Below are positions 45,448-64,000 of a DNA stretch of 64,000 nucleotides, piece after piece. Both the position numbers and the translations under genes were made by a program. The DNA is from Escherichia coli 042 (GTDB lineage Bacteria; Pseudomonadota; Gammaproteobacteria; Enterobacterales; Enterobacteriaceae). How positions within the stretch are numbered: position 1 is the first letter of the stretch; each line of letters starts with the position of its first letter. The stretch lies in the NCBI RefSeq assembly GCF_000027125.1, contig NC_017626.1; one strand, given 5' to 3'. The notes beneath the pieces were generated by a model. It was not told the DNA's origin, made no database searches, and was given only the letters and a program-made list of their open reading frames with translations.

Positions 45448-46941
45448 TATCTCACTCCATGTCGCCTCTCTTATAACAAAATCGTCTCAATTTTATTTTG
45501 TCACTAAGTGATTATCAAATGTTTTTGTTGTGATTTGTTTATGTTTTTAAATGTCTATGTCATGTTATCAGTGTTTTTATATAAAGATACATTGATGTTT
45601 TTATGATGGTGAAAAATCATATTTTCTTTTATATTCATTTGGTTATGATTGTTTGTTCTGCATTTGGGGGATGACAGAAAAGAATGGGCTGTGTTGATCA
45701 CATGCGCCGTATGCGCTGTCCAGGTTACAGCGCACCTCAATATTCAGTGTTTTCCTGTTGACTGGCATTGTTAATCTTATGTTTTTGGTTTTGTTTTATT
45801 GTGTGGTTGTGAATGTTGTGTTTGGTTTGATGGTTGAGAAAGAAAAAAGAAGACTATGATGCACTAATCAGGAAATATTTTCGACGCCGGTTGAGTTAAA
45901 AGAACAGATAGAGTGGACAGGTGTTGTGTTAATAGTTTACGGCTGACAGCATTCTTATTTTAATAACAGGTGTTATTATTTATGGATTTATACAGACGAT
46001 ACTCCCGCTAAATAGTCAGGTGATGATGGTCGTTGAGTGGTTTTATAAGCTACGTATAGCTCTGTAAGACTTATTAATTCAACGATGACTACCGTTTATT
46101 GATATACATGTATTCGGGAAATGTCATAAAAAATGTCACGTTGTTTGCAGAATCTTTTGTTTTTTAGTTTTTGATACGCAATGACTAAGCAGGAGGACTC
46201 ACTTTGTTTGTATGCTGACCGTGATCGTCAGTGGAGATGAACAATTGACTCTTACACTGAAAAATATACTCTCTTGTTTTTTATCGTTTATCTGCATGAA
46301 ATAAATAATCTTCAGCATTTTTCATGTGAATTTCATCATCTTACCCTGAATGTTCATTTTATCAGTATGATATTCCTTTGTTTACTGATAAAATTAACCG
46401 ATAAATGTTCTTGTTAAGATTGCCAGAATGACAGTTTTTGCTGATTCCGTGCAATGGAAGAGATATTATATCATCTATTTAAGCAATAAGTTTAATACAA
46501 ATTTCAGAAGATGTGTTGGTGAGTTGATGACTAATTTTCAGAGGGGGATGGAAAAGTGTATGGAATCCCACAAAGAAAAAATCGTTATTGTTCAGTTGAC
46601 GTTTATTTCTGGGTGATGACTCCAGTCAGCAGAATATGTTTTTTTCGATGAATGACCCAATAACTTTTTCGTGAATTTCCACGGAGCATGAAAAGCAAAT
46701 CGTTTTCCGGTCCAGCCGTTTGATGTGGGAACGGGGGCAGATGGTGGTGCTCAATGCGCCGGGTAAATATCAATACGATTTGAGGAACCATTTGCTGGTT
46801 AATCTCTTTCCGATAGCATTGGATGCAGCAATCACTACATCCAACGTGAATAACCATGAATTGCACAGAAACAATATACCTGCGACCCTCTCCGGAAATT
46901 CCGGTATCACTGACTACGTACCGCCCGGGAGTGATTATGAA

Positions 46942-47541
46942 TCAACAGGCGTATAACAGGTACTCGTCAATCATCAGTTCAAGCTCGCGCTTTTCCCGTT
47001 TGCGCGCCACAGCCCAGCTTTCAAGTTCTGCGTGTGATTTATGCTTTAACTCTTCAGTCCAGGGCTGCATGGAGTGGGCGCACATCAGATCATACCAGCA
47101 CAGCCATATCAGGGTGTGGTAGAGATCGCGATCGTCAAAACGCCGGAGCAGACTGTTCAGCCTGTTTGCCAGTCGGCTTTCTCCCAGACGATGTAGTTCA
47201 CTGAGTAAAACACCACCCAGGTTAAAATGTGTAAGTAACATGATTTCATGAGTCTGAATGCTGGTCATTAACCCTTCCTGAATGGCAGGAATGAACGGTG
47301 GCGTTGCCGGGTTGACTACCTGATAGAGTCCCTGTGGTGCCACCGAGATGATGGTGCCTTTTTCCGGCAGAAAAAAGTGGGCCAGGGTCAGGCGATGATA
47401 ACCATGAAGATGCGGAGAGCCCATTCCGTGAGCGACAATAAACCGGGTTACACTTGCCATCCATTTCTGATGCTGGGTGAGCAGCAGATCACACCGGTTT
47501 TCAAGTTTTTGCATAATATTCTCTCCTTTAGCACGCAGCAA
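46942..47541 (-). CDS. Hypothetical protein (199 aa) downstream of alpA-like gene
   Basis: Co-oriented with and adjacent to the alpA-like ORF; function unknown. Confidence 0.5.
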   Translation of the reverse strand: MLRAKGENIMQKLENRCDLLLTQHQKWMASVTRFIVAHGMGSPHLHGYHRLTLAHFFLPEKGTIISVAPQGLYQVVNPATPPFIPAIQEGLMTSIQTHEIMLLTHFNLGGVLLSELHRLGESRLANRLNSLLRRFDDRDLYHTLIWLCWYDLMCAHSMQPWTEELKHKSHAELESWAVARKREKRELELMIDEYLLYAC

Positions 47542-47599
47542 AATGCCTCCGGAGGCCGGATAGTGTATTCGCTGCGGTTGAACGGGTAATGGTCAGGAA

Positions 47600-47806
47600 T
47601 TACGGACGGGATTGTGCAATACGCGCCTGCAACCAGGCTTCCACTTCACTTTTCAGCCATCGGGAGCTGCGGCCGAGTTTGATGGGGGCCGGAAAGGCAC
47701 CATCCTTGATGAGCTTGTAAAACCACTTATCGGTTAAGCCGGTCAGTTGAGTGATAAACGCCATGTCGACCATCTGGTCATCCATCAGCGAAACTGGGGT
47801 ATTCAT
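47600..47806 (-). CDS. alpA: AlpA-family phage regulatory protein (excisionase-like HTH)
   Basis: ORF 47600-47878; from the internal Met, MNTPVSLMDDQMVDMAFITQLTGLTDKWFYKLIKDGAFPAPIKLGRSSRWLKSEVEAWL matches the AlpA/Phage_AlpA HTH pattern. Confidence 0.7.
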   Translation of the reverse strand: MNTPVSLMDDQMVDMAFITQLTGLTDKWFYKLIKDGAFPAPIKLGRSSRWLKSEVEAWLQARIAQSRP

Positions 47807-48504
47807 GAAAATGTTCCTCCGGATGTTGTTAATCTCAACCGGCGTTGGTGATGAAAAACGCACCACCTTCACTGGCATAACAACCGGGGAGAAACGTAAA
47901 AAATGAGCAGGGGAATATTCCTGTCGGGAGATAAACAGGGAGCATGATGCTGGGATACCCGGTGGCTACCGCGAAACGATGTTTCTCGCGCGTACGCACG
48001 ACAGAGAAGGGATGATTTTCGGGAGGATGAGGGGAAGAACCGTCGTTCTTATAATTGCAGAGTTATTTACGGGGCGGTTACGGTGGGGCAGCTCGTGCCT
48101 TGTGGGCAGGGACAGGTATCACCGATGGGATAAGACTGTCTGATTGGTATTATAAATATATAAGAGAGATCAAACACATGAGTTCATATCTGTGAAATAA
48201 ACACTGTGAGTGTGATCAGTGGGTATGAGAACGCAGTAGCAACAGATTACGTTGTACTCACAGGGCTATCCCTGATAGCTGGCGTATAACCTGCGTATAT
48301 AAAACGTACCTGCAACACACGTGAACAGAGTGCATTAAGCATCCGTCTGAGCGGTAAACGTATCCGACCTGGTGAGTGACAGTCTGAGAGACCGGTTAAG
48401 TGGTGGTGCGGGAGTAATGAGTTTGGGGTGGGTACCAGAATGCCAGTCAGGTGCGGTATGCTGGCAGTATCACGTTAATTGCAGCATAAAGTGATGAGAG
48501 GCTA

Positions 48505-48717
48505 ATGGAAGTTAAAACCAAAGAAGACTGGCTGTATCAGTTCCGTCGTTGTTCATCCCGGGAGACGCTGGAAAAAGTGATTTCCCACACACGTTATAAA
48601 CTTACCCTTGCGGAGCTGGAAGCCTTCAACTCTGCGGTTGATCACCGACTGGCAGAACTAACCATGAACAAACTTTACGATCGCGTTCCGGCTTCTGTCT
48701 GGAAATATGTTACCTGA
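48505..48717 (+). CDS. hha: Hha/YmoA-family nucleoid-associated modulator paralogue
   Basis: 70 aa; ...[56 protein letters not shown] aligns with core Hha (RRCQTIDTLERVIEK...[25 protein letters not shown]). Confidence 0.8.
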   Translation: [70 protein letters not shown]

Positions 48718-49333
48718 ACGTTCGGTAATCACAGCGGTATTGTGCCGGGCGTTATATGCCTGTGATTCTTTTGCTCTTCTCTGGTTGCTGCAAAGCTGAA
48801 TATGTTCCTGTTGTTGGAGGCCGAGGTAATACCGGGAACGTTAAGCGGTATAGCGACAACAAAGAATTCGAAATCAAAAGGGAATGGTGTACGGAGGTGC
48901 GGGCGGTAATGGGCCGATTTTCGGGCATTACCGACCTCTGCTGAGGTTTTCTCGTATTAGCCGGGGATCCGGTGCGTTGAATATTGACGGCATAAACCGA
49001 CAGGCAGAGTCAGCACCAGCAGTGACGTCAGTAGACAGCGCCGACGATCGGTATTCCGGTAATGGGCAACATCCGTATTATGAGTAATTGCCTTACCACA
49101 ATCCCTGCACACCGTTTTGTGTATCACCATAGCTCCCTCCTCACAGTCTTATCTGTAACCGGTTTTTGGCATTAAAAAAACAACGCTGAAAATTCAGCCG
49201 TCAGTCCGGAGACGACAATCGGGTTATCACAGAGTGCCTGAGATATTGCCCGGTTGGAGGTCACTTCAGGGACTCTGCGCATTTTTTACGGCGTGGTTAT
49301 TCCGTATGAACGAAACCATACGGAGATTTAACC

Positions 49334-49903
49334 ATGACATACGAGTACAACCCCTTCTGGCAACAACGTATCCGTGAGACGGTGCTGCGCGCACTGGATG
49401 TTCATCCCCGTCTGACGGCATTGCGGATTGACCTGCGTCTCCCGGATGTACCGGCAGCAACTGACGCAGCAGTGATATCCCGCTTCATCAATGCCCTGAA
49501 AGCCCGAATCGATGCTTATCAGAAGCGTAAGCGCCGTGAAGGCAAACGCGTGCATCCCACAACCCTGCATTACGTCTGGGCCCGGGAGTTTGGGGAGTGC
49601 AAAGGTAAAAAACACTATCACCTGATGCTGCTGGTCAACCGGGATACCTGGTGTCGTGCCGGCGATTACCGCGCTCCGGGATCACTGGCCGGGATGATTA
49701 AACAGGCGTGGTGCAGTGCCCTGGGAGTGGATACCGGAGATCATACCACGCTGGCGCATTTTCCGGTCAGGCCGGCGGTGTGGCTGGAACGCGATGATGA
49801 CACCGGCTTTCAGCAGGTGCTGGAGCGTGCTGACTATCTGGCGAAGGAGAGTACCAAAGCTTACGGCACCGGTGAGCGCAACTTTGGCTGCAGTCGTGGC
49901 TGA
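49334..49903 (+). CDS. YagK/YfjJ-family protein
   Basis: 189 aa; MTYEYNPFWQQRIRETVLRALDVHPRLTALRIDLRLPD, typical of the YagK/YfjJ family found in CP4-6/CP4-57-type elements. Confidence 0.7.
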   Translation: MTYEYNPFWQQRIRETVLRALDVHPRLTALRIDLRLPDVPAATDAAVISRFINALKARIDAYQKRKRREGKRVHPTTLHYVWAREFGECKGKKHYHLMLLVNRDTWCRAGDYRAPGSLAGMIKQAWCSALGVDTGDHTTLAHFPVRPAVWLERDDDTGFQQVLERADYLAKESTKAYGTGERNFGCSRG

Positions 49904-50064
49904 GCCCGACAGACGACTTATCTGACCTTAGTGTGATGACGTGTTCACAGCGACCACACTGATTTTCCCTTCTGAGACTGAACTGAAAACCGCCATTCAC
50001 ACCCTGACCACGCTGCCCGTACCGGGACGGCTGTTGCCTGCGTGTCGTCTGGCGGCTGAGGAAT

Positions 50065-50454
50065 ATGACGATGTACGCAAAATCCTTTCTCGCACTTGAT
50101 GGCAACGGACGTCTGACCGGTGCCCGTACCGCACAGACAGCGCCATACGATCGTTACACCTGCCACCTCTGTGGCAGTGCTCTCAGATACCACCCGCAAT
50201 ACGACACTGAACGTCCCTGGTTTGAACACACTGACGACGGGCTGACTGAGCATGGTCATGAGTGCCCTTATGTCAGACCGGAGCGCAGAGAAATACTGTT
50301 GATTAAACGCTTACGGCAATTCGTACCGGACGCCTTACCCGTAGTGCGTAAAGCCAGCTGGCACTGCAGACAATGTCACCACGATTATTATGGGGAGCAG
50401 TACTGCACACACTGTCATACAGGGCGCTTCAGTGAGGAGGTGGTTGCAGAATGA
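50065..50454 (+). CDS. Cys/His-rich zinc-ribbon-like protein (129 aa)
   Basis: Motifs CHLCGSAL...WFEH...HECPY...WHCRQCHHDYYGEQYCTHCHTG. Confidence 0.5.
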   Translation: MTMYAKSFLALDGNGRLTGARTAQTAPYDRYTCHLCGSALRYHPQYDTERPWFEHTDDGLTEHGHECPYVRPERREILLIKRLRQFVPDALPVVRKASWHCRQCHHDYYGEQYCTHCHTGRFSEEVVAE

Positions 50455-50863
50455 ACGGTATAAAAACGGGGCTGGGATCACGCCGGGTGAGCACATTATC
50501 AGTGCCGATTCTGCGCTCAGCAGAAATATCCGGCATTGTTTCTGTCTTTCCTGTCGTGGCCGGTTGATTTTGCAGACAGATGCTCAGGGGGCGTGGTTTG
50601 AGCACGATTTACATGCCCTGAGCGCGCAACAGAAGGCGGCCTGCGTGGTGCTGAATCCGGAAAAATCCCATCCTTACATTGATGATATGGCGATGTTTTT
50701 ATCGCCATTACCTGTCGTGCTGGAGTGGCATTGTGTGATGTGCGGGCAGCATTTTTCCGGGAAAAAGTTCTGTGAAGCCTGTGGCACGGGGATTTATTGC
50801 AGAGCGGCATGTACGAAGTATGTTTACAGATACCAGCCAGATTTGCTCCGGGACCAGGAGTGA
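50390..50863 (+). CDS. Second zinc-ribbon-like paralogue; start unclear, possibly frameshifted
   Basis: Repeats the neighbour's pattern (CFCLSC...WFEH...WHCVMCGQHF..FCEACGTG.YC) in a different frame. The only in-frame ATG (50390) lies 65 nt inside the upstream ORF; a strong SD plus ATG at ~50450 is in a third frame. Confidence 0.4.
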   Translation: MGSSTAHTVIQGASVRRWLQNERYKNGAGITPGEHIISADSALSRNIRHCFCLSCRGRLILQTDAQGAWFEHDLHALSAQQKAACVVLNPEKSHPYIDDMAMFLSPLPVVLEWHCVMCGQHFSGKKFCEACGTGIYCRAACTKYVYRYQPDLLRDQE

Positions 50864-51135
50864 GGGAGATGCGACATAATTACTTGATCATGCCAGTCAT
50901 GCCCCTGCCGGATCCGGATGTGGTCCGGCGCTTTGTTCCGCGGACGGTGGCTCACTGGCTGTGTCTGCTGATGATCCTCTTTATGCGACATTCAGACAGG
51001 GGAGACATCGATAAACATCATCATCTGCGGGCAAATAGTTACACAGAATGATCATTGCTACCGGTTATGGCAAAACTTGGTGATGACCAGGTGAACCATC
51101 GGTGCTTCCGTTGATTCTTATGGACTGATAAAGTT

Positions 51136-52798: not shown

Positions 52799-52874
52799 AA
52801 AATTAAATCAGTGCACAAGGGGAGGCATCTGCGGTGATGGAACCCCTGAGATGCAGGTTTCACAGGAGAGAGCC

Positions 52875-53372
52875 ATGAGCAGTTCGTTTCAGAATGAAAT
52901 CCCGAAAGCAAGGGTAAATCTGAAATTAGACCTACATACGGGTGGTGGGCAGAAGAAAGTGGAGCTTCCGCTCAAACTTCTGGTTGCCGGTGATTTCAGT
53001 AACGGACAGGAAGAGCGTCCACTGTCAGAGCGTGTAAAAACGGATATTAATAAAAACAATTTTAATGATGTTCTGGCAGATATCTCCCCGTCTGTACATC
53101 TGAATGTGGAGAACACGCTTGCCGGTGATGGCTCTGAAGAGAGCATCAGCCTGACTTTCCGCAATATGAACGATTTCACGCCAGAGCAGGTCGCCCGACA
53201 GATTCCCCGTCTTAAAGCCATGCTGGCCATGCGTAGCCTTCTGCGGGACCTGAAAGCCAATCTGCTGGATAACGTGACTTTCCGTAAAGAGCTGGAAAAA
53301 ATTCTGCGTGACCCGGCACTGAGTCAGACGCTGCGTGATGAACTGCGTGCACTGGTGCCGGAAAAGGCGTGA
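52875..53372 (+). CDS. tssB: T6SS contractile sheath small subunit TssB
   Basis: ORF 52851-53372; from the internal Met, MSSSFQNEIPKARVNLKLDL...VELPLKLLVAGDF, a typical TssB/VipA N-terminus; RBS aggagag upstream. Confidence 0.93.
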   Translation: MSSSFQNEIPKARVNLKLDLHTGGGQKKVELPLKLLVAGDFSNGQEERPLSERVKTDINKNNFNDVLADISPSVHLNVENTLAGDGSEESISLTFRNMNDFTPEQVARQIPRLKAMLAMRSLLRDLKANLLDNVTFRKELEKILRDPALSQTLRDELRALVPEKA

Positions 53373-53393
53373 TTTAACGGATTACGAGAGAAA

Positions 53394-54938
53394 ATGCTGA
53401 TGTCTGTACAGAAAGAAAAGAACGTTGCAGAGAGCGTGGTATCTGAAGCGCATGCCGGCGACAGCGTATATGCTTCCCTGTTTGAAAAAATTAACCTGAG
53501 TCCGGTATCTGCCCTGAGTGCACTGGATATCTGGCAGGATCCACAGGCCATGTCAGAAGCATCTGCAGATGAACGTCTGACGGCAGGGATGCAGGTGTTT
53601 ATGGAGTGTCTGGCAAAAGCCGGCACGCAGGTGGAAAAACTCGATAAAGCGCTGATTGACCATCATATTGCAGAGCTTGATTATCAGATCAGCCGTCAAC
53701 TGGATGCTGTGCTTCATCATCCGGAATTTCAGAAAGTGGAGTCGCTGTGGCGGGGCGTGAAGTCCCTGGTGGATAAAACGGACTTCCGCCGTAATGTGAA
53801 AATTGAGCTGCTGGATCTGTCCAAAGACGATCTGCGTCAGGATTTTGAGGATGCGCCGGAAATTATTCAGAGCGGCCTTTATCTGCAGACCTATGTGGCT
53901 GAGTATGACACGCCGGGTGGTGAGCCCATTGCCGCCCTGGTTTCAGCCTGGGAGTTTGATGCATCTGCACAGGACGTGGCGTTGCTGAAAAATATTTCCC
54001 GGGTGGCGGCATCTGCACATATGCCGTTTATTGGTTCAGTTGGCCCGGCGTTCTTCCAGAAAGAAACCATGGAAGAGGTGGCTGCCATCAAGGATATTGG
54101 CAACCACTTTGAGCGTGCCGAGTACATCAAGTGGAATGCTTTCCGTGAGACGGACGATGCCCGCTATATTGGCCTGGTGATGCCCCGTGTACTGGGACGC
54201 CTGCCGTATGGCCCGGATACCGTACCTGTCCGCAGCTTTAACTATGTTGAAGAGGTGAAAGGACCGGACCACCATAAATATCTCTGGACGAACGCGTCTT
54301 TTGCCTTTGCAGCCAACATGGTGCGCAGTTTTGTCACCAACGGCTGGTGTGTTCAGATCCGTGGGCCTCAGGCCGGTGGTGCGGTGCAGGATTTGCCAAT
54401 CCATTTGTATGATCTGGGAACCGGTAATCAGGTCAAAATTCCGTCAGAGGTGATGATCCCGGAAACGCGGGAGTTTGAATTCGCGAATCTGGGCTTTATT
54501 CCGCTCTCTTACTACAAGAACCGGGATTATGCCTGCTTCTTCTCTGCTAACTCCGCCCAGAAACCGGCGCTGTACGATACGCCGGATGCAACGGCGAACA
54601 GTCGTATTAATGCCCGTCTTCCCTATATCTTCCTGCTGTCCCGTATTGCGCATTACCTGAAGATCATTCAGCGGGAAAATATCGGTACCACCAAAGATCG
54701 CCGTCTGCTTGAGCTGGAGCTGAATAACTGGATCCGGGGACTGGTGACGGAGATGACCGATCCGGGTGATGAACTGCAGGCCTCGCATCCGCTGCGTGAC
54801 GGAAAAGTGGTGGTGGAAGATATCGAAGACAATCCGGGATTCTTCCGCGTGAAACTCTACGCCGTACCGCATTTCCAGGTAGAAGGTATGGACGTCAGCC
54901 TGTCACTGGTTTCGCAGATGCCGAAGGCAAAAGCGTAA
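53394..54938 (+). CDS. tssC: T6SS contractile sheath large subunit TssC
   Basis: 514 aa directly after tssB; TssC/VipB-like sequence throughout. Confidence 0.95.
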   Translation: MLMSVQKEKNVAESVVSEAHAGDSVYASLFEKINLSPVSALSALDIWQDPQAMSEASADERLTAGMQVFMECLAKAGTQVEKLDKALIDHHIAELDYQISRQLDAVLHHPEFQKVESLWRGVKSLVDKTDFRRNVKIELLDLSKDDLRQDFEDAPEIIQSGLYLQTYVAEYDTPGGEPIAALVSAWEFDASAQDVALLKNISRVAASAHMPFIGSVGPAFFQKETMEEVAAIKDIGNHFERAEYIKWNAFRETDDARYIGLVMPRVLGRLPYGPDTVPVRSFNYVEEVKGPDHHKYLWTNASFAFAANMVRSFVTNGWCVQIRGPQAGGAVQDLPIHLYDLGTGNQVKIPSEVMIPETREFEFANLGFIPLSYYKNRDYACFFSANSAQKPALYDTPDATANSRINARLPYIFLLSRIAHYLKIIQRENIGTTKDRRLLELELNNWIRGLVTEMTDPGDELQASHPLRDGKVVVEDIEDNPGFFRVKLYAVPHFQVEGMDVSLSLVSQMPKAKA

Positions 54939-54953
54939 GGCAGGTGTCGGGAA

Positions 54954-56291
54954 ATGAAGATTTATCGCCCATTATGGGAAGACGGGGCTTTTCTGATGCC
55001 CCAGCAGTTTCAGCAGCAGGCTGCCTGGGATGTTCATCTGGCAGACAGCGTTGCCAGAATGGGGCTGGCGCATCCATGGGGCGTGGTGGCTGCAGAGTTT
55101 GATGACTCTCTGTTACCGCTTTCACGGTTGAATGCCACCCGTCTGATTGTTCGTTTCCCGGACGGAACGCTTATTGATACGGAACGCGCGGATAATCTGC
55201 CTCCGGTCTGTGATTTATCGACGGTTTCTGATCGTTCCCTGGTGGATATTGTGCTGGCACTACCGTTACTGAATGCTAACGGTGGCAACCTTGATAATGG
55301 CAGTGAGAGCGAGCGTCCGCGTCGCTGGAAATCAGAAAGGGTGAATGTGCAGGAGCTGGCCGGGCATGAGCAAAGCGAAGTGGCGGTATTGCGGCATAAC
55401 CTGACTCTGCGCATGGCTCATCAGGAAAATGCTGCCTGGCTGACCTGTCCCGTTACCCGTCTTGTTCGTGATGCACAGGGACAGTGGTGCAGGGACCCGC
55501 GTTTTATTCCCCCTCTGCTGACGCTGTCTGCCAGTCCTTCGCTGATGACTGAACTTGCGGAGTTGCTTCATCACCTGCAGGCGCGTCGCCAGCGACTGAT
55601 GTCCATGCGTCGGGAGAACAATGCCCGTCTTGCGGATTTTGCTGTGGCGGACGTGTCGTTGTTCTGGTTGCTGAATGCCCTGAACAGTGCGGAGCCTGTT
55701 CTGAAAGAGTTGCTTGACATGCCTTACCGCCACCCGGAACTGTTGTACAGGGAGCTTGCCCGGCTGGCAGGCTCCCTGCTCACATTCTCGCTTGAGCATA
55801 ATGTGGATGCGGTTCCGGCATACCATCATGAAACACCTGAAAATGTTTTCCCACCATTGCTTTCTTTGCTGAACCGGCTGCTGGAGGCAAGCCTGCCTTC
55901 CCGTGTGGTTTTCATTGAACTGAAACAAAAGGGTGTGATGTGGGAGGGGGCATTACATGATGCGCGTCTGCGCGAAGGGGCTGATTTCTGGCTTTCAGTG
56001 CGCTCTTCCATGCCCGGGCATGAACTGCAGACGAAGTTTCCGCAGCTATGCAAAGCCGGGAGCCCCGATGATGTGTCTGAGGTGGTGAATGTGGCGCTGA
56101 GCGGGGTCATTATCCGTCCGGTTACGCATGTACCGGCGGCCATTCCGCTCCGGCTGGAAAACCAGTATTTCGCGCTGGATTTAAGTACGGATGCGGCCCG
56201 GGCGATGCTGGACGCGGGGCGTTGTACTTTCTACACCCCGGCATCGCTGGGAGATGTGAAACTGGAACTTTTTGCGGTGCTGCGGACATGA
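54954..56291 (+). CDS. tssK: T6SS baseplate protein TssK
   Basis: 445 aa; MKIYRPLWEDGAFLMPQQFQQQ, canonical TssK N-terminus. Confidence 0.9.
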   Translation: MKIYRPLWEDGAFLMPQQFQQQAAWDVHLADSVARMGLAHPWGVVAAEFDDSLLPLSRLNATRLIVRFPDGTLIDTERADNLPPVCDLSTVSDRSLVDIVLALPLLNANGGNLDNGSESERPRRWKSERVNVQELAGHEQSEVAVLRHNLTLRMAHQENAAWLTCPVTRLVRDAQGQWCRDPRFIPPLLTLSASPSLMTELAELLHHLQARRQRLMSMRRENNARLADFAVADVSLFWLLNALNSAEPVLKELLDMPYRHPELLYRELARLAGSLLTFSLEHNVDAVPAYHHETPENVFPPLLSLLNRLLEASLPSRVVFIELKQKGVMWEGALHDARLREGADFWLSVRSSMPGHELQTKFPQLCKAGSPDDVSEVVNVALSGVIIRPVTHVPAAIPLRLENQYFALDLSTDAARAMLDAGRCTFYTPASLGDVKLELFAVLRT

Positions 56292-56941
56292 ATAAACCTG
56301 TTATCTCCCGGGCTGAACAGATTTTTTATCCCGGCTGGCTGATGGTCAGCCAGCTGCGCAGCGGGCAACCGGTTGAGGATGGTAAGGCCCTGTATCGCCG
56401 TGCCTGTCAGCTGGTGAAACAGGCGCGTGAAGAGCTGGCCGAAGCAGGATTCAGTCAGAAAAGCAGTGACATCATGTTGTATGCCTTCTGCGCCCTGCTG
56501 GACGAGAGTGTACTGAACCGCGAAAAAACAGACGATGGCTGGCGCACCTGGCAGCAGGACCCGCTGCAGGCTCATTTTTTTGGTACGCTCAATGCCGGTG
56601 AAGAGCTCTGGGAGCGTATTCGTGAACAACTGAAATTACCAGCGCCGGATGTGGCGGTACTGACATGCCTCTGCCGTACGCTTCAGCTCGGTTTTACCGG
56701 TCAGTACCGGTCGCAGGATGATGAGCGTCGCGAAGATGTAATACGCGCACTGACAGCGCGTGTTCCTGCATTTACTTTCGCACAGGATGCGCCGGTGGTG
56801 GTGCGTGCACCGGGTTACCGTGCTGGCAGAACGATGTACTGGTTGTCATGGGGGGCGGGTATTGTGACGCTGGCTGGTCTCTGGTGTGTGCTTTCTTCTG
56901 TGCTTGCAGACCAGGTGGCACGGCTTACCGGGCAGGGATAA
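56288..56941 (+). CDS. tssL: T6SS membrane-complex protein TssL (DotU-like)
   Basis: ORF 56222-56941; start taken at the ATGA overlap with the tssK stop (MNKPVISRAEQIFYPGWL...); cytoplasmic DotU domain plus single C-terminal TM helix. Confidence 0.88.
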   Translation: MNKPVISRAEQIFYPGWLMVSQLRSGQPVEDGKALYRRACQLVKQAREELAEAGFSQKSSDIMLYAFCALLDESVLNREKTDDGWRTWQQDPLQAHFFGTLNAGEELWERIREQLKLPAPDVAVLTCLCRTLQLGFTGQYRSQDDERREDVIRALTARVPAFTFAQDAPVVVRAPGYRAGRTMYWLSWGAGIVTLAGLWCVLSSVLADQVARLTGQG

Positions 56942-56943
56942 CC

Positions 56944-58674
56944 ATGCACGTACGTTCCCGTCTCTGGCTGACAATACTGAGTCTGTTCCTGACACTGTGG
57001 CTGATTTCGGGATTCCTGCCGCTGTCTGCAGTAAACCAGATAATACTGACCCTGGTTTCAGTTGTGGCGGCGGGGCTTGTGCTGTGGTACCAGTGGCGTT
57101 GTCTGTCTTCCCGTCGTGATATCCCGGAGAAGGCCGGCGATGACGGTCTGCCGCCTGAGTATTTTCAGGGACATGTGCTGCTTGTTGCCGGAAACTCAGA
57201 TGCGTGGTTCGAACCCGGTCAGGCATACCGGGAAACAGCATCGGGATGGTATCTTCGTGTGGATACGCCGGAGCAGATGAGAATACTGGCAGAACGGTTG
57301 TCGTACAGCCGTCCGGCCCTGTGTGGCCAGGTCGTGGTCATGCTGGGACTTTTACCGGAGCAGCATACCTCAGATGAAGCTTTCCTGTCGTGGTTGCGGA
57401 ACTGGCAGCGTGCAGTCATGCAGTGCCGGCAGTGGCTGAATACCACGCCACCGGTGCTGGTTACATTGATGGTTTCAGAGCCGTCACCACAAAACACATC
57501 CTTAAATAAGCACTCTACACACTGGTTTACACTGACACCGGACCTGCCGGGAATGCATATACGCCTGACGGAAGCCGGAGCAATTCCGGCAGAGGAATGG
57601 CTGCAGGCGTGTGATGCAGCGTCCAGGCTCCGGTGCGTCAGTGAACTGTTATGGCTGAATGCCATGTTGTCCTGGTACAACCGGGTTACTGATGCCCTGA
57701 CAGCTATTTGCCGGCAGGAGCACTTTTATTTCCGGCCGGTTGCCGTTGGATTCTGTCTGACGTCGGTTGCGGCCCGCCCCGGTAATCTCTGGCAACAACA
57801 ACTGACGTCCCTCACTGCATTGCCACCGCCTGCCGGCGTGTCATCACAGGTATTGCCGTTGCCGGATATTCTGCTGTCCGGTATTCCCCGTCATCGTGGA
57901 CTCAGTCACTGGCACAGACTTTGTCGCCAGACGGGGGCGATTGTCGGTGTTTTTCTTCTGCTGGCTATGCTGGCGTCTTTTATGAATAACCAGCGGCTGG
58001 TTCGCAGCGTGGGGGAACACCTGACGGCCTGGCACCGGATGCGCGGATATTCATCTGAATCGAAAACAACAGCACTGCAACGTCTTCAGGCTGACAGCCA
58101 GTTACTGAACGACTGGCAGCAACGTGGTGTGCCACAGCGTTACGGACTGGGATTGTATCAGGGAATGTGGCTGATACCGCCGGTTGAGCGTGCGACTGGT
58201 GAGTGGGTTGCACCACGGCCTCCCCGTCCGGTGATACAGAAAGTTACTCAGACGCCGAAAACGGTTCGCCTTAACAGCCTGGCACTGTTTGATGCCGGTA
58301 AATGGACGCTGAAGCCGGGCGCCACAAAATGGCTGGTGAATGCCCTGGTGGATATTAAGGCAAAAGCAGGCTGGCTGATTGTGGTCAGTGGTCACACGGA
58401 TAATACCGGTGACCCGCTGCGCAACCAGGCCTTGTCCCTGAAGCGTGCAGAGGCCGTTCGCGACTGGATGCGGGATACCGGCGATATTCCCCAAAGCTGT
58501 TTTGCCGTACAGGGATACGGTGAAAGCCGCCCTGTGGCCCCGAATGACACGGCGGAAGGCCGTGCGCGTAACCGCCGTGTTGAAATCAGTCTGGTACCGC
58601 AGGCCGATGCCTGTCGTCTGCCGGACGTTTCCCCTGCGCCGGAAGAGGGCGCATCAGAAAACATAACGGAGTAA
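56944..58674 (+). CDS. tagL: TagL-like T6SS accessory protein: polytopic membrane domain plus C-terminal OmpA/MotB-type peptidoglycan-binding domain
   Basis: ORF 56848-58674; Met at 56944 immediately after the tssL stop gives 576 aa; N-terminal TM helices; C-terminal VSGHTDNTGDPLRNQALSLKRAEAVRDWM...NRRVEI OmpA-like motif. Confidence 0.8.
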   Translation: MHVRSRLWLTILSLFLTLWLISGFLPLSAVNQIILTLVSVVAAGLVLWYQWRCLSSRRDIPEKAGDDGLPPEYFQGHVLLVAGNSDAWFEPGQAYRETASGWYLRVDTPEQMRILAERLSYSRPALCGQVVVMLGLLPEQHTSDEAFLSWLRNWQRAVMQCRQWLNTTPPVLVTLMVSEPSPQNTSLNKHSTHWFTLTPDLPGMHIRLTEAGAIPAEEWLQACDAASRLRCVSELLWLNAMLSWYNRVTDALTAICRQEHFYFRPVAVGFCLTSVAARPGNLWQQQLTSLTALPPPAGVSSQVLPLPDILLSGIPRHRGLSHWHRLCRQTGAIVGVFLLLAMLASFMNNQRLVRSVGEHLTAWHRMRGYSSESKTTALQRLQADSQLLNDWQQRGVPQRYGLGLYQGMWLIPPVERATGEWVAPRPPRPVIQKVTQTPKTVRLNSLALFDAGKWTLKPGATKWLVNALVDIKAKAGWLIVVSGHTDNTGDPLRNQALSLKRAEAVRDWMRDTGDIPQSCFAVQGYGESRPVAPNDTAEGRARNRRVEISLVPQADACRLPDVSPAPEEGASENITE

Positions 58675-58679
58675 TTTTT

Positions 58680-59171
58680 ATGGCAATTCCAGTTTATCTG
58701 TGGCTGAAAGATGATGGCGGTGCAGATATCAAAGGGTCCGTGGATGTTCAGGACCGTGAGGGCAGCATTGAGGTGGTGGCTCAGGAGCACTGCCTCTACA
58801 TCCCGACGGATAACAATACCGGTAAGCTGACCGGTACCCGTATTCACACGCCGTTTCTGTTTACCAAGGAAATTGATTCTTCCAGCCCGTACCTTTACAA
58901 GGCCGTGACCACCGGGCAGACCCTGAAGTCTGCTGAGTTTAAGTGGTACAAAATCAATGATGCCGGTCAGGAGGTGGAGTATTTCAATACGAAGCTTGAG
59001 AACGTGAAGGTGGTGAAGGTTAACCCGGTCATGCACGACATCAAGAATCCCGCTTACGAGAAGCATAACCACCTTGAGCAGGTGGAACTGCGCTACGAGA
59101 AAATCACCTGGACTTACAAGGACGGCAACATCATTCATTCCGACGCATGGAGTGAGCGTACCACCGCGTAA
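58680..59171 (+). CDS. hcp: T6SS inner tube protein Hcp (TssD)
   Basis: 163 aa; MAIPVYLWLKDDGGADIKGSVDV, classic Hcp. Confidence 0.93.
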   Translation: MAIPVYLWLKDDGGADIKGSVDVQDREGSIEVVAQEHCLYIPTDNNTGKLTGTRIHTPFLFTKEIDSSSPYLYKAVTTGQTLKSAEFKWYKINDAGQEVEYFNTKLENVKVVKVNPVMHDIKNPAYEKHNHLEQVELRYEKITWTYKDGNIIHSDAWSERTTA

Positions 59172-59330
59172 TTCTGCCGGACGGACAGGGCATCCTGTCC
59201 GTCATTTTTATTTTTTCTTCAGCATCTGTTGGCGGGTGCTGAAGAAAGAATTCTCAATCCTGAACACAGACCTGATGCGCCTGGGTTACGGCGAAGGGCG
59301 GTAGCGTGCCTGACGGTCTCCTGACAGTGA

Positions 59331-61997
59331 GTGAATAACATGGAAAATTCGGCAGCCCTGTTACGTCGTCTTAATCATTACTGTGCCCGTGCACTGGAAG
59401 GCGCAGCCTCCCTTTGCCAGACCCGGGCCCATGCGGAAATCACCCCGGAGCACTGGTTACTGAAACTGCTGGAGCAGGGGGAAGGAGACCTTACCGTGCT
59501 GGGCAGGCGTTATGACTGGGATATGGACGCGATATGGCAGTCGCTGCTCGGCTGGCTGGATAACCAGCCCCGTAGCGTACGCAGTCGCCCGCAGCTTGCG
59601 CAGTCCCTGAATGCTCTGCTGAAACAGGCCTGGATGGTGGCCTCATTACAGGGAGAAGAACATATCCGCAGCGTGCATCTGCTGGGTGCCCTGACGGAAA
59701 ATCCGCACCTGGTTCGCTGTGACGGGCTGTGGCCTCTGCTGACACTGAGTCAGAGCCAGTTGCAGCGTCTGTCCCCGCTGCTGGATGCGCAGTCTGATGA
59801 GTGTCCGGAGACGTTACAGGATGCAGAGCCTGTGCTGCCTCAGGGAGACAGTGTGACCTTTATCGGGCGCCCTGTCGGTGCGGATACGGCAGGTATACCG
59901 TCAGGTGACCTGCCGCCGGTGTTACAGGGTGCGCTGGATAAATTCACCCGGGACATCACGGCCAGCGCGAGAGAGGGGAAAATTGACCCGGTATCGGGAC
60001 GCGATACGGAAATCCGTCAGATGGTGGATATTCTCTCCCGCCGTCGCAAGAATAACCCGATTCTGGTGGGGGACCCCGGTGTGGGGAAAACGGCTCTGGT
60101 GGAAGGGCTCGCCCTGCGTATTGTGGAAGGTAACGTACCAGAATCTCTCAGACCCGTCACCCTGCGCACCCTTGACCTCGGCCTGCTGCAGGCCGGTGCC
60201 GGCGTGAAAGGTGAATTTGAACAGCGTCTGAAAAACGTGATTGATGCCGTGCAGCTGTCACCGGCTCCTGTACTGCTGTTTATAGATGAAGCCCATACCC
60301 TTATCGGTGCCGGTAATCAGGCCGGTGGCGCGGATGCGGCCAACCTGCTGAAGCCTGCGCTGGCGCGAGGCGAACTGCGCACCATTGCTGCCACCACCTG
60401 GTCTGAGTACAAACAATACCTGGAACGTGACGCGGCTCTGGAGCGGCGTTTTCAGATGGTCAAAGTGGACGAGCCGGATGATGAGACGGCCTGTCTGATG
60501 CTGCGCTCCCTGAAATCCCGTTATGCGGAACATCATAACGTGCATATCACCGATGAGGCAGTACGTGCTGCCGTCACACTCTCGCGCCGTTATCTGACAG
60601 AACGTCAGTTACCGGACAAGGCCGTTGACCTGCTTGATACTGCTGCTGCCCGTGTGCGGATGAGCCTCGACACGGTGCCGGAACAGCTGACCCGAATCCG
60701 TTCACAGCTCGCTTCCCTCGGTATGGAAAAACAGGCACTGCTGGAAGATATTGCCGTTGGTCATCAGAATCACGGCGAACGCCTGTCTGCCATTGAGCAG
60801 GAAGAGAACGTGCTGATGACAGCACGTGATGACCTGGAGCAGCAGTACGCCCGTGAGTGCGAACTCACCGGTGAGTTACTTGAAAGCCGCAGCGATATTT
60901 CCCGCCAGAGTGAGACACATCACCTGCAGCAGGCACTGCACGACATTCAGCAGAATCAGCCCCTGCTCAGTGTGGATGTTGACGTACGCACCGTTGCCGG
61001 TGTGGTCGCGGACTGGACCGGAGTGCCGTTATCCTCACTGATGAAGGATGAACAGACGGAACTGCTGCATCTGGAAAAGGATATCGGCAGACGGGTGGTC
61101 GGACAGGACGTGGCACTGGAATCCATTGCACAGCGTCTGCGTGCGGCGAAAACGGGTCTGACATCCGGTAACGGCCCCCAGGAGGTGTTCCTGCTGGTCG
61201 GCCCCAGTGGTGTGGGAAAAACCGAAACGGCACTGGCGCTGGCAGATGTGATGTACGGCGGCGAAAAATCACTGATTACCATCAATCTGTCGGAATATCA
61301 GGAGCCCCATACGGTTTCCCAGCTTAAGGGTTCACCGCCCGGGTACGTGGGATACGGTCAGGGGGGTATTCTGACGGAAGCTGTACGTAAGCGCCCTTAC
61401 AGCGTGGTGCTGCTGGATGAAGTGGAAAAGGCCCACCGGGATGTGCTGAATCTGTTCTACCAGGTGTTTGACCGGGGCTTTATGCGCGACGGTGAGGGGC
61501 GTGAAATTGACTTCCGTAATACGGTCATTCTGATGACCTCCAATCTGGGCAGTGACCTTCTGATGCAGCAACTGAGCGAAAAGCCGGAGACAACGGAATC
61601 GGAGCTGCATGAGCTTATCCGTCCACTGCTGCGCGACCACTTCCAGCCAGCACTGCTTGCCCGTTTCCAGACCGTGATTTACCGTCCGCTGACACCGTCT
61701 GCTATGCGCACCATTGTGGAGATGAAGCTTGCACAGGTCTGCGAACGCCTGCACTGCCATTATGGGCTGAGCACATCGGTTGATGAACGTGTGTACGATG
61801 CCCTGACATCCGCCTGCCTGCTGCCGGATACGGGCGCCCGGAATGTGGAGAGTCTGCTGAACCAGCAACTGCTGCCGGTACTGAGCCGGCAGTTGCTGAG
61901 CCATATGGCCGCGAAGCAGAAACCGCAGGCGCTGGCTCTGGCATGGAGTGACGAAGACGGTATGGTGATTGAGCTGCGGCAGGAATGCGCGTTATGA
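59331..61997 (+). CDS. clpV: T6SS AAA+ ATPase ClpV (TssH)
   Basis: 888 aa; two AAA+ modules with Walker A GDPGVGKT and GPSGVGKT; ClpB-like N-domain. Confidence 0.95.
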
Positions 61998-62560
61998 CCG
62001 GCTATGGCAGAAATCAGGACGCTGGCGCAGGTAAAAATCAAAGGGAAGAAGGCTCATTGCGGTTACTGACGCCGGGAGAGATTGCGCTGGCGAGGCTGGT
62101 ATTCAGGTTGACAATCCCTTATGAAAAGGTCTGGATCCACCATGACAGTTTTCTGCCTTTTGGTCTTCAGAATAAGCAAACTGCCATGCCCCCCGATGGT
62201 AAGATTTATTTCCGTGAGCACTATCGGGATGATTATTCACTCAGCGTTCCCTTTTATCAGCATATGTTTATTCATGAAATGGCGCATGTCTGGCAGCGTG
62301 AAAAGGGAATGAATGTCATCGGTCGGGGGATGTTCAGTTGGGCGGTGAATTACCGTTATGTTCTGGACGGGCGTCTGTTAAGCGAATATCCCATGGAGCA
62401 GCAGGCACAAATTATTGCTGATCATTTTACTTTGCAGGCTGAAGGATACGGGACATGGTGTGATATGAGAAGGGACGGTGATATCACACTGGACGGAAAT
62501 ATGTCTGAGTATGTTATTCGCAGCCTGTATACCAGCACGTTGCGGGGGTTCCCATGGTAA
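61994..62560 (+). CDS. HExxH-motif protein (putative Zn-metallopeptidase-like), T6SS-associated, function unknown
   Basis: ORF 61985-62560; ATGA overlap with the clpV stop suggests translational coupling; motif FIHEMAHVWQ; no signal peptide. Confidence 0.55.
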   Translation: MTGYGRNQDAGAGKNQREEGSLRLLTPGEIALARLVFRLTIPYEKVWIHHDSFLPFGLQNKQTAMPPDGKIYFREHYRDDYSLSVPFYQHMFIHEMAHVWQREKGMNVIGRGMFSWAVNYRYVLDGRLLSEYPMEQQAQIIADHFTLQAEGYGTWCDMRRDGDITLDGNMSEYVIRSLYTSTLRGFPW

Positions 62561-63096
62561 AAATAAGAGCCTTTCGTTATCGTTCTGCTTTACTGCTCTG
62601 TCTGACGTTACTGACAGGATGCCCCGGACGCGGGGATTATTATCGGTTTGATGAAACAGTAACGGTCAGCACAAGAGGCGACAATGTGTGTTTCAGTGTC
62701 CCGGAGCCAGAGGACTACCAGCCAGTCAGCGTTTCCATCGCTCCACGGGGAACCCGATTCAGGGAGCGGCAAATTACATCTGAACCCTCGCTTCGTATCG
62801 TGAACGGCCAGCTGTGCATTCCGCCTTCATTCTGTCTTTTTCCTGATAAAGGCCAGTTCATTGTCAGGTCTGTTCTGCACTCTGAGCGCGATAAGGACAC
62901 ACCGCGCATCATGGTTGCCGGCATAGAGATTGCCGACGGGTGTATTTTCGATATCCCGCTTAATGACATGGAGGTCGTGAGGCCATACGGTGAGCTGAAA
63001 AGCAGTAATGTTCAGACTGACCAGAGCGAACGTCATGGTCCCTGCAAATACCCTTTCAGAGCTGTTCGTGGAGTGATAAATCATGAATCTCACTGA
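62554..63096 (+). CDS. Predicted lipoprotein (180 aa), T6SS-associated
   Basis: Signal peptide plus lipobox LLTGC (MVKIRAFRYRSALLLCLTLLTGC); overlaps the HExxH ORF upstream and vgrG downstream. Confidence 0.55.
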   Translation: MVKIRAFRYRSALLLCLTLLTGCPGRGDYYRFDETVTVSTRGDNVCFSVPEPEDYQPVSVSIAPRGTRFRERQITSEPSLRIVNGQLCIPPSFCLFPDKGQFIVRSVLHSERDKDTPRIMVAGIEIADGCIFDIPLNDMEVVRPYGELKSSNVQTDQSERHGPCKYPFRAVRGVINHESH

Positions 63097-64000
63097 CTCC
63101 CTGCAAAATGTTTTATCCGGGGTGGGAACCCTGAACCGCTACAGACTGGATATACCTTCCTGCCCGTCATCGCTGGATGTTGAAGATTTCAGCGGAACTG
63201 AAGGCATAAGTAAGATTTACCGGTATGACATCATTTTTACCAGTACGGACAGGTATCCTGATGCTGCCTGGTTCCTGCGTAAATCCGCAACCCTGATAAT
63301 GGGAACCGGATTACTGGAAAGCCTGACTGAACAGAAAAAAGTGCACGGTGTTATTACTGATTTCAGACGTATTTCTGGCTCTGAGGACCAGGCACAATAC
63401 CGGATCACACTTAAACCTTTCATTTCCCTGCTGGATAAACAGTTCCGTACACACCGTTTTTTCGTTAATAAATCAGTGCCTGAGGTGGTGGAGCAAATCC
63501 TGACGGAACACGGGCTGAAAGGCTGGGAGTATGAGTTCAGCCTCAAAAGGACATATCCGAAGCGCGAACAGATTAACCAGTATCAGGAAAGCGATCTGAG
63601 ATTTATCCAGCGCCTGCTGGCAGAAGTGGGCATTTTTTACTTCTTTACGTTGCACCCGGATGCGCAGACAGAGGTGATCCACTTCGGTGACGTCCAGGCG
63701 GCGTTGATATTTGATAAAACACTGCCCGTTAACAGCCCGTCCGGTATGAGTGACAGTGGCACAGACTCAGTATGGGCATTGAATGTGGAGCACCGGGTGG
63801 TGGAAAGCCGTGTTATCACGAACGACTATAACCACCGCGAGGCCCAGAACATACTGATGTCCGTACCGGCGGACATGACCCGTGGAGAAGGTTACGACAC
63901 CAGTTATGGCGAGGTTTATCATTACCGGCCACGCCATACAGAAAGGGGCGATAAAATTGACCCTGCGCCGGAGACGGCTAACTTCTGGGCCCGGCTCGAT
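63083..64000 (+). CDS. vgrG: T6SS spike protein VgrG (TssI), N-terminal part; runs off the window end
   Basis: Manual translation from atg 63083: MNLTDSLQNVLSGVGTLNRYRLDIPSCPSSLDVEDFSGTEGISKIYRYDIIFTS...; open to position 64000; typical VgrG gp27-like N-terminus. Not in the ORF track because no stop is reached. Confidence 0.85.
   Translation, partial: MNLTDSLQNVLSGVGTLNRYRLDIPSCPSSLDVEDFSGTEGISKIYRYDIIFTSTDRYPDAAWFLRKSATLIMGTGLLESLTEQKKVHGVITDFRRISGSEDQAQYRITLKPFISLLDKQFRTHRFFVNKSVPEVVEQILTEHGLKGWEYEFSLKRTYPKREQINQYQESDLRFIQRLLAEVGIFYFFTLHPDAQTEVIHFGDVQAALIFDKTLPVNSPSGMSDSGTDSVWALNVEHRVVESRVITNDYNHREAQNILMSVPADMTRGEGYDTSYGEVYHYRPRHTERGDKIDPAPETANFWARLD

Follow-up and report, generated by a model that had tools for sequence, protein, structure and literature searches.

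An intact hha2 gene on a genomic island of pathogenic Escherichia coli, encoding a predicted H-NS co-silencer

Described relatives of the gene considered here include the core proteins Hha (encoded at hha-tomB) and YmoA (ymoBA), their paralogue YdgT/Cnu, Hha proteins borne on IncI1-type and IncX4 plasmids, and two island-borne genes of EAEC 042, hha2 (EC042_4516; Prieto et al. 2016, Sci Rep 6:25973; Bernabeu et al. 2019, BMC Genomics 20:313) and hha3 (EC042_4796). In this strain the ag43 copy EC042_2242 responds to each of hha2, hha3 and hha, and hha2 transcription in the wild type almost reaches that of hha (PMC4864382). In a hha hha2 double mutant, all the genes listed for the duplicated flu-yeeR-irmA region are derepressed by more than 2-fold, with values of 2.2-6.2 fold for duplicated region 2 that are similar to those of an hns mutant (PMC6480617). 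A repressive effect of hha, hha2 and hha3 on ag43_2242, irmA_4509 and duplicated region 2 is on record; most of the published phenotypes are those of the double mutant, so the share of hha2 alone can be made out only poorly.

Here we analysed a 64,000-nucleotide stretch of E. coli DNA (hereafter the window) in which a 70-aa ORF had been singled out from the letters alone as a horizontally acquired Hha paralogue. That observation is correct and the gene is already published: it is hha2 of pathogenic E. coli, for which a gene name, a locus tag, mutants and transcriptomes exist. Our preferred reading, with a probability of roughly 0.78, is that this allele (EC042_4516 type) is an intact and expressed Hha/YmoA-family gene, acquired horizontally and residing on a CP4-like island at the cadC (pheU) site, and that it acts as a co-silencer with H-NS. 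Our own analysis shows that the gene belongs to the family, keeps its key residues, corresponds to hha2, lies in the published gene order and evolves under purifying selection. Extra copies of Hha and H-NS on mobile DNA are one way in which pathogenic E. coli hold acquired virulence genes (Ag43, IrmA and possibly the T6SS) silent until needed. To the published picture we make minor additions, namely the grouping with plasmid Hha, the purifying selection, the decayed island copies and a 5'-truncated hha3-type allele.

Identity and relatives of the island-borne gene

The ORF belongs to the Hha/YmoA family, as had been predicted. It matches Pfam HHA (PF05321) at E=2.3e-27 over model positions 3-57 of 57, exceeds the cutoff of the NCBIfam model for the hemolysin expression modulator Hha (NF008191; 106 bits versus 90), and over residues 5-69 recovers the solved structures of Hha (1jw2, E=4e-22; 4icg as well), YmoA (2k5s, E=5e-21) and Cnu (2jqt, E=2.5e-10). 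The protein WP_000453331.1 of 55989 and O104:H4 is 100% identical to that of the window, and PGAP annotates the gene as hha in 55989, O104:H4 and UPEC69. At approximately 58% identity to solved chains, Hha2 is predicted to adopt the helical fold of the Hha/YmoA/Cnu type.

Alignment against the three chromosomal relatives confirmed the family and placed Hha2 closer to Hha and YmoA than to Cnu, at identities that vary with the alignment: ~56-58% for Hha, 55-57% for YmoA and 48-49% for Cnu. Core Hha and YmoA share with it the Pfam and NCBIfam family, the length class and homology along the whole chain (1jw2, 4icg and 2k5s), as well as the equivalents of D48, E25, C18, R16 and R17 and a 14-residue motif. 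The conserved core motif named in the original prediction is indeed present, although it reads AVDHRL and not AADHRL. The N-terminus is divergent, as proposed: relative to K-12 Hha, 18 of 41 positions are identical in residues 1-41, against 21 of 29 in residues 42-70. YdgT/Cnu has the same Pfam family and fold but differs by two insertions, and assignment of Hha2 to YdgT was rejected on the corresponding NCBIfam equivalog (NF007703; 49 bits versus a cutoff of 101). Unlike core Hha and YmoA, Hha2 has no tomB or ymoB upstream, and its island location is variable where theirs is fixed.

Published reagents tie the window gene to hha2. Both PCR primers specific for hha2 have perfect sites, at 48601-48620 and 48686-48707 (0 mismatches each), and the knock-out arms designed for EC042_4516 (Prieto et al. 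2016) match 48469-48510 (0 mismatches) and 48712-48753 (1 mismatch). The last bases of arm P1 are ATGGAA (48505-48510) and arm P2 begins at the last codon before the stop, so that the two bracket the ORF exactly; the single mismatch of the 42-nt P2 arm lies just past the hha2 stop codon. For hha3 (4796), the forward primer finds no site in the window even with 3 mismatches allowed, and the reverse primer needs 2 to match. Since the hha2 primers and knock-out arms match and the hha3 primers do not, or only with mismatches, we assign the gene to the hha2 type. Judging from these oligonucleotides, the window ORF would be identical to EC042_4516 over its full length, and we see no substantive difference between the two. 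The order irmA - yeeR - ag43 - ... - alpA - hha2 is likewise that of the published gene in EAEC 042, where hha2 has been placed upstream of irmA_4509 (PMC9431211).

Outside the island copies, the closest proteins are plasmid Hha, at 75-78% identity for the IncI1-type (Salmonella, E. coli) and 69-71% for IncX4. These and Hha2 share the N-terminal signature TK(Q/E)(E/D)WL(Y/F)Q(L/F)R(R/K)C(S/T)S, which includes Gln at the position of Hha R14, and a neighbour-joining tree places them in one group with Hha2 that is separate from core Hha and YmoA. Because of this grouping we regard Hha2, on sequence grounds, as a xenologue and not a duplicate of core hha; its status as a horizontally acquired, island-borne member of the family is supported. 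The settings differ. IncX4 Hha lies in an operon topoisomerase-hha-hns, beside an H-NS homologue, whereas Hha2 has no adjacent H-NS homologue; the IncI1-type gene lies in the transfer region, whereas hha2 is chromosomal and flanked by alpA and yagK-type genes. Like Hha2, the plasmid proteins come without tomB.

Island neighbourhood and flanking DNA

The features of the locus are collected in Table 1. The original prediction had placed the gene between an alpA module and a yagK-like gene, near Ag43 and the T6SS, and Pfam and PGAP annotation agree. An alpA-type gene holds the same position in the paralogous loci L003-L005, and the yagK-type gene is conserved 3' of the hha-like gene in those paralogous loci that have an intact downstream region; in L017 an IS3 remnant replaces it. 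The irmA, yeeR and agn43 genes sit 5.4-11.7 kb to the left of hha2, and the island also carries a cbtA/cbeA toxin-antitoxin pair. No island-borne H-NS paralogue was found in the window (best tblastn E=3.1).

Table 1 Features of the hha2 locus in the window
Feature	Position	Strand	Evidence and remarks
irmA	36825-37280	-	PGAP annotation of identical DNA
yeeR-like membrane protein gene	37356-39872	-	PGAP annotation of identical DNA
agn43	39993-43112 or 43118	-	PGAP annotation of identical DNA
AlpA-family HTH gene	47600..47806	-	Phage_AlpA PF05930, E=5e-9; PGAP 'helix-turn-helix transcriptional regulator'; divergent from hha2
alpA-hha2 divergent spacer	47807..48504	.	698 bp; no ORF >54 aa; must contain the hha2 promoter
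Shine-Dalgarno-like GAGAGG (putative)	48496..48501	+	Read from the sequence; 3 nt upstream of the ATG
hha2 CDS	48505..48717	+	ATG start; 70 aa; intact allele identical to WP_000453331.1
Weak terminator-like hairpin with T-rich tail	48746..48762	+	Pattern scan; 29 nt past the hha2 stop
YagK/YfjJ-type (inovirus Gp2 family) gene	49334..49903	+	YagK_YfjJ_C PF11726, E=6.8e-48; downstream of hha2
T6SS cluster (tssB, tssC, tssK, tssL, OmpA-family gene, hcp, tssH ...)	52875..64000	+	55989 PGAP annotation mapped onto the window

The window island adjoins cadC, and the corresponding island in 55989 and O104:H4 abuts yghD/gsp. A match of the whole window to these two genomes was accordingly rejected: the locus itself is 100% identical, but the island flanks differ.

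The claim that the gene lies in AT-rich DNA did not hold. Base composition of hha2 and its immediate flanks is 45-50% GC (local GC 48-49%), about the E. coli average; AT-rich patches occur at 44400-46600 (29-42% GC) and at 52400-52800, the T6SS leader (28-40% GC).

Conservation of the divergent spacer across paralogous loci is ~85-88% and does not exceed that of the flanking genes, and a simple scan upstream of hha2 found no consensus sigma-70 site. No tomB-like partner lies upstream, in agreement with the original prediction: a TomB query, itself validated against NCBIfam NF007948 (234 bits), gave a best tblastn E of 0.48 in the window, 47879-48504 holds no ORF >54 aa, and the small spacer ORFs have no NCBIfam match. 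Rfam yielded no structured RNA or sRNA at E<=1 over 44000-53000. Support for the hairpin as a terminator is weak, because it folds no better than shuffled sequences (z = -0.24).

The feature had originally been drawn as 48505-48944, of which 48718-48944 is unrelated to the gene. A 62-aa ORF at 48756-48944 was considered as a partner gene and rejected, having no family match and lying where other genomes annotate different small ORFs; its 5' part falls in DNA that 4 of 5 paralogous loci do not conserve. It is probably not a gene, to judge from these comparisons.

Distribution and decay of island copies

A 701-bp region was matched in 2908 of 5426 complete E. coli genomes, with 5278 of the 5280 matching places chromosomal and a median of 2 (up to 6) places per genome; the exact Hha2 protein occurs on at least 1000 contigs. 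Both hha2 and hha3 have been put forward as markers by which PCR could identify high-risk clones, for example O104:H4 and ST131. Five intact alleles gave dN/dS values of 0.02-0.08 with dS up to 0.43, which shows strong purifying selection on the intact form.

Many paralogous island copies in other genomes are pseudogenes, inactivated by a 14-bp deletion (L004, L005 and L006), a 1-nt deletion (L019) or a replaced 5' end (L007). With so many decayed copies, hha2 is therefore dispensable in many backgrounds. The last of these loci holds an hha3-type allele, to which the hha3 primers and the knock-out arm for 4796 match. hha3 itself (EC042_4796) has the same type of island context, with a yagK-type gene downstream, and ~90% DNA identity over codons 20-70. 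In L007 the replaced 5' end is combined with a 1-nt deletion, leaving a GTG start and 58 aa that lack helix 1 and the equivalents of the Cys and of E25, whereas the window gene is full-length.

Predicted action and competing explanations

The residues tied to H-NS binding in Hha are retained. Hha2 D46 and E23 align with Hha D48 and E25, of which, in the account given by PMC4519777 with reference to de Alba 2011, the first is strictly required and the second important for H-NS binding. The equivalents of R17 (R15 in Hha2) and R16 are kept as well, and the position of Hha R14 is occupied by Q12, as it is by Gln in IncI1 and IncX4 plasmid Hha. This last substitution weighs against co-silencing, since R14 is one of two residues whose combined loss (R14A/R17A) removes silencing while leaving H-NS binding in place (PMC4231757). 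In the published work on hha2 we found no direct Hha2-H-NS binding assay.

As the likeliest mechanism, we postulate that the 8-kDa, four-helix Hha2 would dock on the N-terminal dimerisation domain of H-NS through an acidic patch (D46, E23), and probably on StpA or H-NS2 too, while its basic face (R14, R15, R30, R48 of Hha2) would favour DNA bridging. Hha2 could in this way add to the Hha pool of the cell and strengthen H-NS silencing of horizontally acquired genes, the co-travelling flu(ag43)-yeeR-irmA genes among them. Direct binding of H-NS by Hha2 is a prediction, as would be any effect on the adjacent T6SS cluster. The proposal that the island paralogue modulates silencing of Ag43 fits published data for ag43 EC042_2242, irmA_4509 and the duplicated region, but not for the neighbouring copy: by qRT-PCR the two other ag43 copies, including EC042_4511 beside hha2, were not significantly affected (PMC4864382). 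For the T6SS cluster we found no published data, and neither 'T6SS' nor 'type VI' occurs in PMC5861252.

A more elaborate version of co-silencing, which we consider doubtful, would make Hha2 a 'stealth' co-silencer of plasmid lineage that CP4-like islands have captured. Through its altered helix 1 (Q for R14, with the signature common to IncI1/IncX Hha) it might prefer other partners or targets than core Hha does, such as filaments of H-NS2 or StpA on island DNA; it might buffer the H-NS/Hha pool specifically for the co-transferred ag43/irmA and T6SS genes; and the frequent decay of extra copies might reflect dosage selection for one intact copy per genome.

Hha2 could also regulate island genes mainly without H-NS, either alone or via StpA or the third paralogue H-NS2. 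For Salmonella HhaD48N, a variant that retains binding to StpA, an Hha regulon independent of H-NS has been described (PMC4519777), and a hint in the same direction comes from IrmA_4509, the copy adjacent to hha2, which is raised when hha and hha2 are both mutated but not upon mutation of hns (PMC9431211). We nonetheless hold this route to be unlikely: Hha2 keeps the D48 and E25 equivalents on which H-NS binding depends, hha-null and hns mutations have similar effects on region-2 genes (PMC6480617), and a 70-aa Hha fold has no DNA-binding domain.

That Hha2 is instead an orphan toxin of the Hha/TomB (type VII) kind, affecting growth, biofilm or persistence and curbed in trans by core TomB via Cys oxidation, seems very improbable. 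The sole Cys of Hha2, C16, does align with Hha C18, the cysteine targeted by TomB-enhanced oxidation (PMC5155140), and an island that holds a cbtA/cbeA pair and no cognate tomB in the window would suit such a role. Hha toxicity, however, was seen by overexpression (PMC5155140), wild-type 042 transcribes hha2 near the hha level with no toxicity on record and deletion of the gene gives regulatory phenotypes (PMC4864382), and the plasmid relatives also do without tomB.

Just as little probability attaches to hha2 being a redundant passenger that does nothing beyond core Hha and YdgT and is heading for decay. Several independent inactivations in paralogous copies (L004-L007 and L019) and the multicopy state of the region would be expected of such a gene; against this, the dN/dS of the intact alleles over the dS observed cannot be reconciled with neutral drift, the exact protein recurs on at least 1000 contigs, and hha2 is expressed and gives phenotypes in 042 (PMC4864382). 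Least credible of all is an anti-silencer that binds H-NS without bridging, having lost the basic residue equivalent to R14, and competes with Hha to relieve island silencing: Hha R14A/R17A does bind H-NS without augmenting silencing or DNA collapse, an effect documented for the double mutant only (PMC4231757), but Hha2 retains the R17 equivalent and a net charge of +2, equal to that of core Hha, and joint loss of hha and hha2 leads to derepression, not repression (PMC9431211, PMC6480617).

Identity and family of the island hha gene

The island carries at 48505-48717 an ATG-initiated ORF of 70 aa ([70 protein letters not shown]). The original prediction of a Hha/YmoA protein was borne out by Pfam (HHA, PF05321, E=2.3e-27, entire model covered), by NCBIfam NF008191 'hemolysin expression modulator Hha' (106 bits; curated cutoff 90; the YdgT equivalog gave 49 bits, cutoff 101) and by matches over the full length to solved Hha (1jw2 and 2mw2, E=4e-22, also 4icg), YmoA (2k5s) and Cnu (2jqt) structures; by these scores, the ORF belongs unambiguously to the family. 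Depending on the alignment used, identity is ~56-58% to K-12 Hha, 55-57% to YmoA and 48-49% to YdgT/Cnu. The predicted N-terminal divergence also held, with 18/41 residues identical to K-12 Hha at positions 1-41 compared with 21/29 at 42-70, while the conserved motif, given earlier as AADHRL..., in fact reads [16 protein letters not shown]. Codon 35 (48607-48609), which aligns with core Hha D37, encodes Leu in the window, 55989 and O104:H4 allele and Pro in the four other intact alleles examined (KLTLAELE versus KLTPAELE).

Judged by sequence, this gene is the published hha2. EAEC 042 was reported to have two extra hha paralogues, hha2 (EC042_4516) and hha3 (EC042_4796), enriched in EAEC (including O104:H4), STEC and ST131, with variable map positions and IS flanks, from which spread by horizontal gene transfer was concluded (Prieto et al. 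2016, PMC4864382). Both PCR primers specific for hha2 match without mismatch, at 48601-48620 and 48686-48707, whereas of the hha3 primers the forward has no match in the window within 3 mismatches and the reverse matches only with 2. Knock-out arm '4516 P1' matches exactly at 48469-48510, ending at ATGGAA, and '4516 P2' matches 48712-48753 with one mismatch, beginning at the last sense codon, so the published boundaries are exactly those of the ORF. The placement of hha2 (ec042_4516) upstream of irmA_4509 (PMC9431211), taken together with ag43 EC042_4511, agrees with the gene order of the window. E. coli 55989, O104:H4 outbreak strains and other RefSeq genomes share an identical copy of a 701-bp region bearing hha2, and there the gene is already annotated 'hha' (WP_000453331.1). 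The gene is known, named, mutated and reviewed; a 2019 review already lists both paralogues (PMC6936261).

Apart from the island copies, Hha2 is closest to Hha proteins encoded on plasmids. IncI1-type Hha (69 aa, 75-78% identical; contigs L010-L013) is encoded in a transfer region after TraW, TraX and an exclusion protein and before a DotM-like gene, and IncX4 Hha (69-71% identical; pIPCEC42_3, L008:2504-3190) in a topoisomerase-hha-hns operon with an H-NS homologue directly 3' of hha. All three have in common the 'divergent' N-terminal signature, in which Q stands at the R14 position, and a neighbour-joining tree groups the plasmid Hha with Hha2, separate from core Hha and YmoA. On this shared signature and grouping, Hha2 is a plasmid-lineage xenologue and not, as the review words it (PMC6936261), a duplicate of core hha. 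It is almost exclusively chromosomal: this holds for 5278 of 5280 places of the 701-bp region, and only ~7 plasmid records reach at least 80% protein identity to Hha2.

Island setting

The gene lies, as first described, between the alpA module and the yagK-like gene (Table). The alpA/hha-like/yagK-type/zinc-ribbon order is kept in paralogous loci except where IS elements replaced a flank; in L006 and L007, loci from other E. coli genomes, IS remnants stand in place of the alpA side.

Table. Features of the window around hha2, in local order
Feature	Position	Strand	Remarks
adiC-adiY-adiA, melRAB, fumB, dcuB, dcuRS, ghoST, lysS-type, dtpC, cadABC			left flank of window
cadC to DUF4942 junction	~31045-31792
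cbtA/cbeA TA pair, radC, antirestriction gene, DUF932, DUF905			left of irmA
irmA	36825-37280		followed by yeeR-like membrane protein gene
agn43	39993-43118		right of yeeR-like gene
GTPase, hypothetical gene, IS1 remnant			in 2-kb AT-rich patch; a further hypothetical gene follows
339-aa hypothetical gene of the AT-rich patch	44428-45447	-
IS1 transposase fragment of the AT-rich patch	46626-46770
alpA-type HTH gene	47600-47806	-	PF05930
Spacer			698 bp, to hha-like gene
hha-like gene (hha2)	48505-48717	+
62-aa ORF	48756-48944	+	PGAP 'hypothetical protein'
Small ORF	48957-49130	-	PGAP 'hypothetical protein'
yagK/yfjJ-type gene	49334-49903		PF11726, E=7e-48
Two zinc-ribbon genes, several small genes, DUF4222			right of yagK/yfjJ-type gene
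Second zinc-ribbon gene	50451-50863		PGAP pseudogene, mapped from L001:14152-14564; 50390-50863 in ORF list
tssB, tssC, tssK, tssL, tagL-like, hcp, tssH			right end

The island adjoins cadC, since the left flank ends in cadABC; in K-12 this is the pheU tRNA site. No tRNA gene was found in the window, and the tRNA end of the island therefore lies beyond 64000. Next to the island in 55989 and O104:H4 stands yghD/gsp, not cadC. UPEC69 carries a frameshifted tyrosine-recombinase fragment at the cadC junction (L015:27211-27364), and in 55989 and UPEC69, whose DNA is identical here, the annotation gives the second zinc-ribbon gene a frameshift. Outside the window, the EAEC genomes O104:H4 (L014:1-3598) and 55989 (L002:32131-34724) have beside the glc operon a cluster for serine palmitoyltransferase, an acyl carrier protein, an epimerase and a fatty acyl-AMP ligase, a set unusual for E. 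coli, which in 55989 is truncated together with glcC by an IS1 insertion.

The gene had been described as lying in AT-rich DNA, but 48000-48999, which spans it and its flanks, is 45-50% GC. The GC profile places the AT-rich stretches nearby, at 44400-46600 and 52400-52800. The most AT-rich DNA near hha2 is a ~2.2-kb patch of 29-42% GC (44400-46800), where ~1.2 kb between the 339-aa gene and the IS1 fragment is free of ORFs of at least 150 aa; 52400-52800 is a leader of 28-40% GC directly upstream of tssB. This leader likely holds the promoter of the T6SS genes and is a candidate for silencing by H-NS/Hha, and together with the patch at 44.4-46.6 kb it could plausibly hold H-NS nucleation sites.

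The span proposed earlier, ending at 48944, took in the separate 62-aa ORF, which we regard as non-coding: it matched no family, and it begins within 48719-48832, a segment missing or replaced in 4/5 paralogous loci. Other genomes annotate different small ORFs at this place; both ORFs annotated in the window between hha2 and the yagK-type gene are probably not genes.

Proposed silencing role and rival readings

By alignment, Hha2 keeps core Hha D48, E25, C18, R16, R17 and R50 (as D46, E23, C16, R14, R15 and R48), K32 is R30 with basic charge kept, and R14 is replaced by Q12; like Hha, the protein has a net charge of +2. Binding of the H-NS N-terminal domain around R12 strictly requires D48 of core Hha, and E25 is important for it (PMC4519777). 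Because these residues and the charge are retained, Hha2 most likely acts by the canonical Hha mode: predicted to bind H-NS-type filaments, it would strengthen bridging and silencing of horizontally acquired DNA, and the island would enlarge the Hha pool. R14 and R17 belong to the basic face that points outward, and Hha R14A/R17A still binds H-NS without augmenting silencing or DNA collapse (PMC4231757); that Hha2 is instead an anti-silencer through the R14Q change is less likely, R17 and the net charge being kept.

Functional data come from the literature. In 042, transcripts of hha2 are slightly below those of hha and those of hha3 much lower, and deletion of any of the three changes expression of ag43 EC042_2242 (PMC4864382). 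Neither of the remaining ag43 copies, the one beside hha2 among them, responded significantly (PMC4864382). By RNA-seq of the hha hha2 double mutant, each of the 15 genes listed for the duplicated 'region 2' (flu-yeeR-irmA, a TA gene, antirestriction, radC and others) rose 2.2-6.2-fold, resembling an hns mutant (PMC6480617), and IrmA_4509 protein rose in hha hha2 and not in hns (PMC9431211). The most serious rival to the canonical mode is a role independent of H-NS or directed at StpA/H-NS2. No H-NS-like gene was found within the window. We found no literature report of a direct Hha2-H-NS binding assay, nor a published one of an hha2 effect on T6SS, including a test of the tssB leader. Overall, the observation behind the original prediction is confirmed and its interpretation supported.

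An orphan Hha/TomB-type toxin is a less likely reading. The cysteine at which TomB-enhanced oxidation inactivates Hha, C18, is conserved (PMC5155140). The absence of a tomB-like partner upstream, noted at the outset, was upheld: the ORF list has no ORF >54 aa at 47879-48504, the small spacer ORFs had no family match, and tblastn over the window with a TomB query, confirmed as such by its score of 234 bits to NCBIfam NF007948 (cutoff 108), gave a best E-value of 0.48. Rfam had no match over 44000-53000.

Constraint and decay among hha2 copies

A redundant passenger in decay is likewise less likely: across five intact alleles pairwise dN/dS is 0.02-0.08 with dS up to 0.43, which marks a strongly constrained protein. 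In other E. coli genomes, additional hha2-like copies have been inactivated repeatedly, by the same 14-bp deletion after codon 6 (L004:2501-2699, L005:2501-2699, L006:2501-2680), by a 1-nt deletion (L019:801-1012) or, in L007, by a replaced 5' end. Among the loci examined, only L007:2480-2656 (E. coli AR434, NZ_CP029122.1) matches the hha3 PCR primer as well as the 4796 knock-out arm. Its allele, with an IS2 remnant upstream, is 5'-truncated, lacks 1 nt present in hha2, and encodes from a GTG start 58 aa without helix 1 and the Cys18 and E25 equivalents. 'Hha3' as published may be such a crippled remnant, and the truncation may explain the low reported hha3 expression. Several inactivated copies still bear the PGAP names 'hha' or 'Hha/YmoA family', called at start codons inside the gene.
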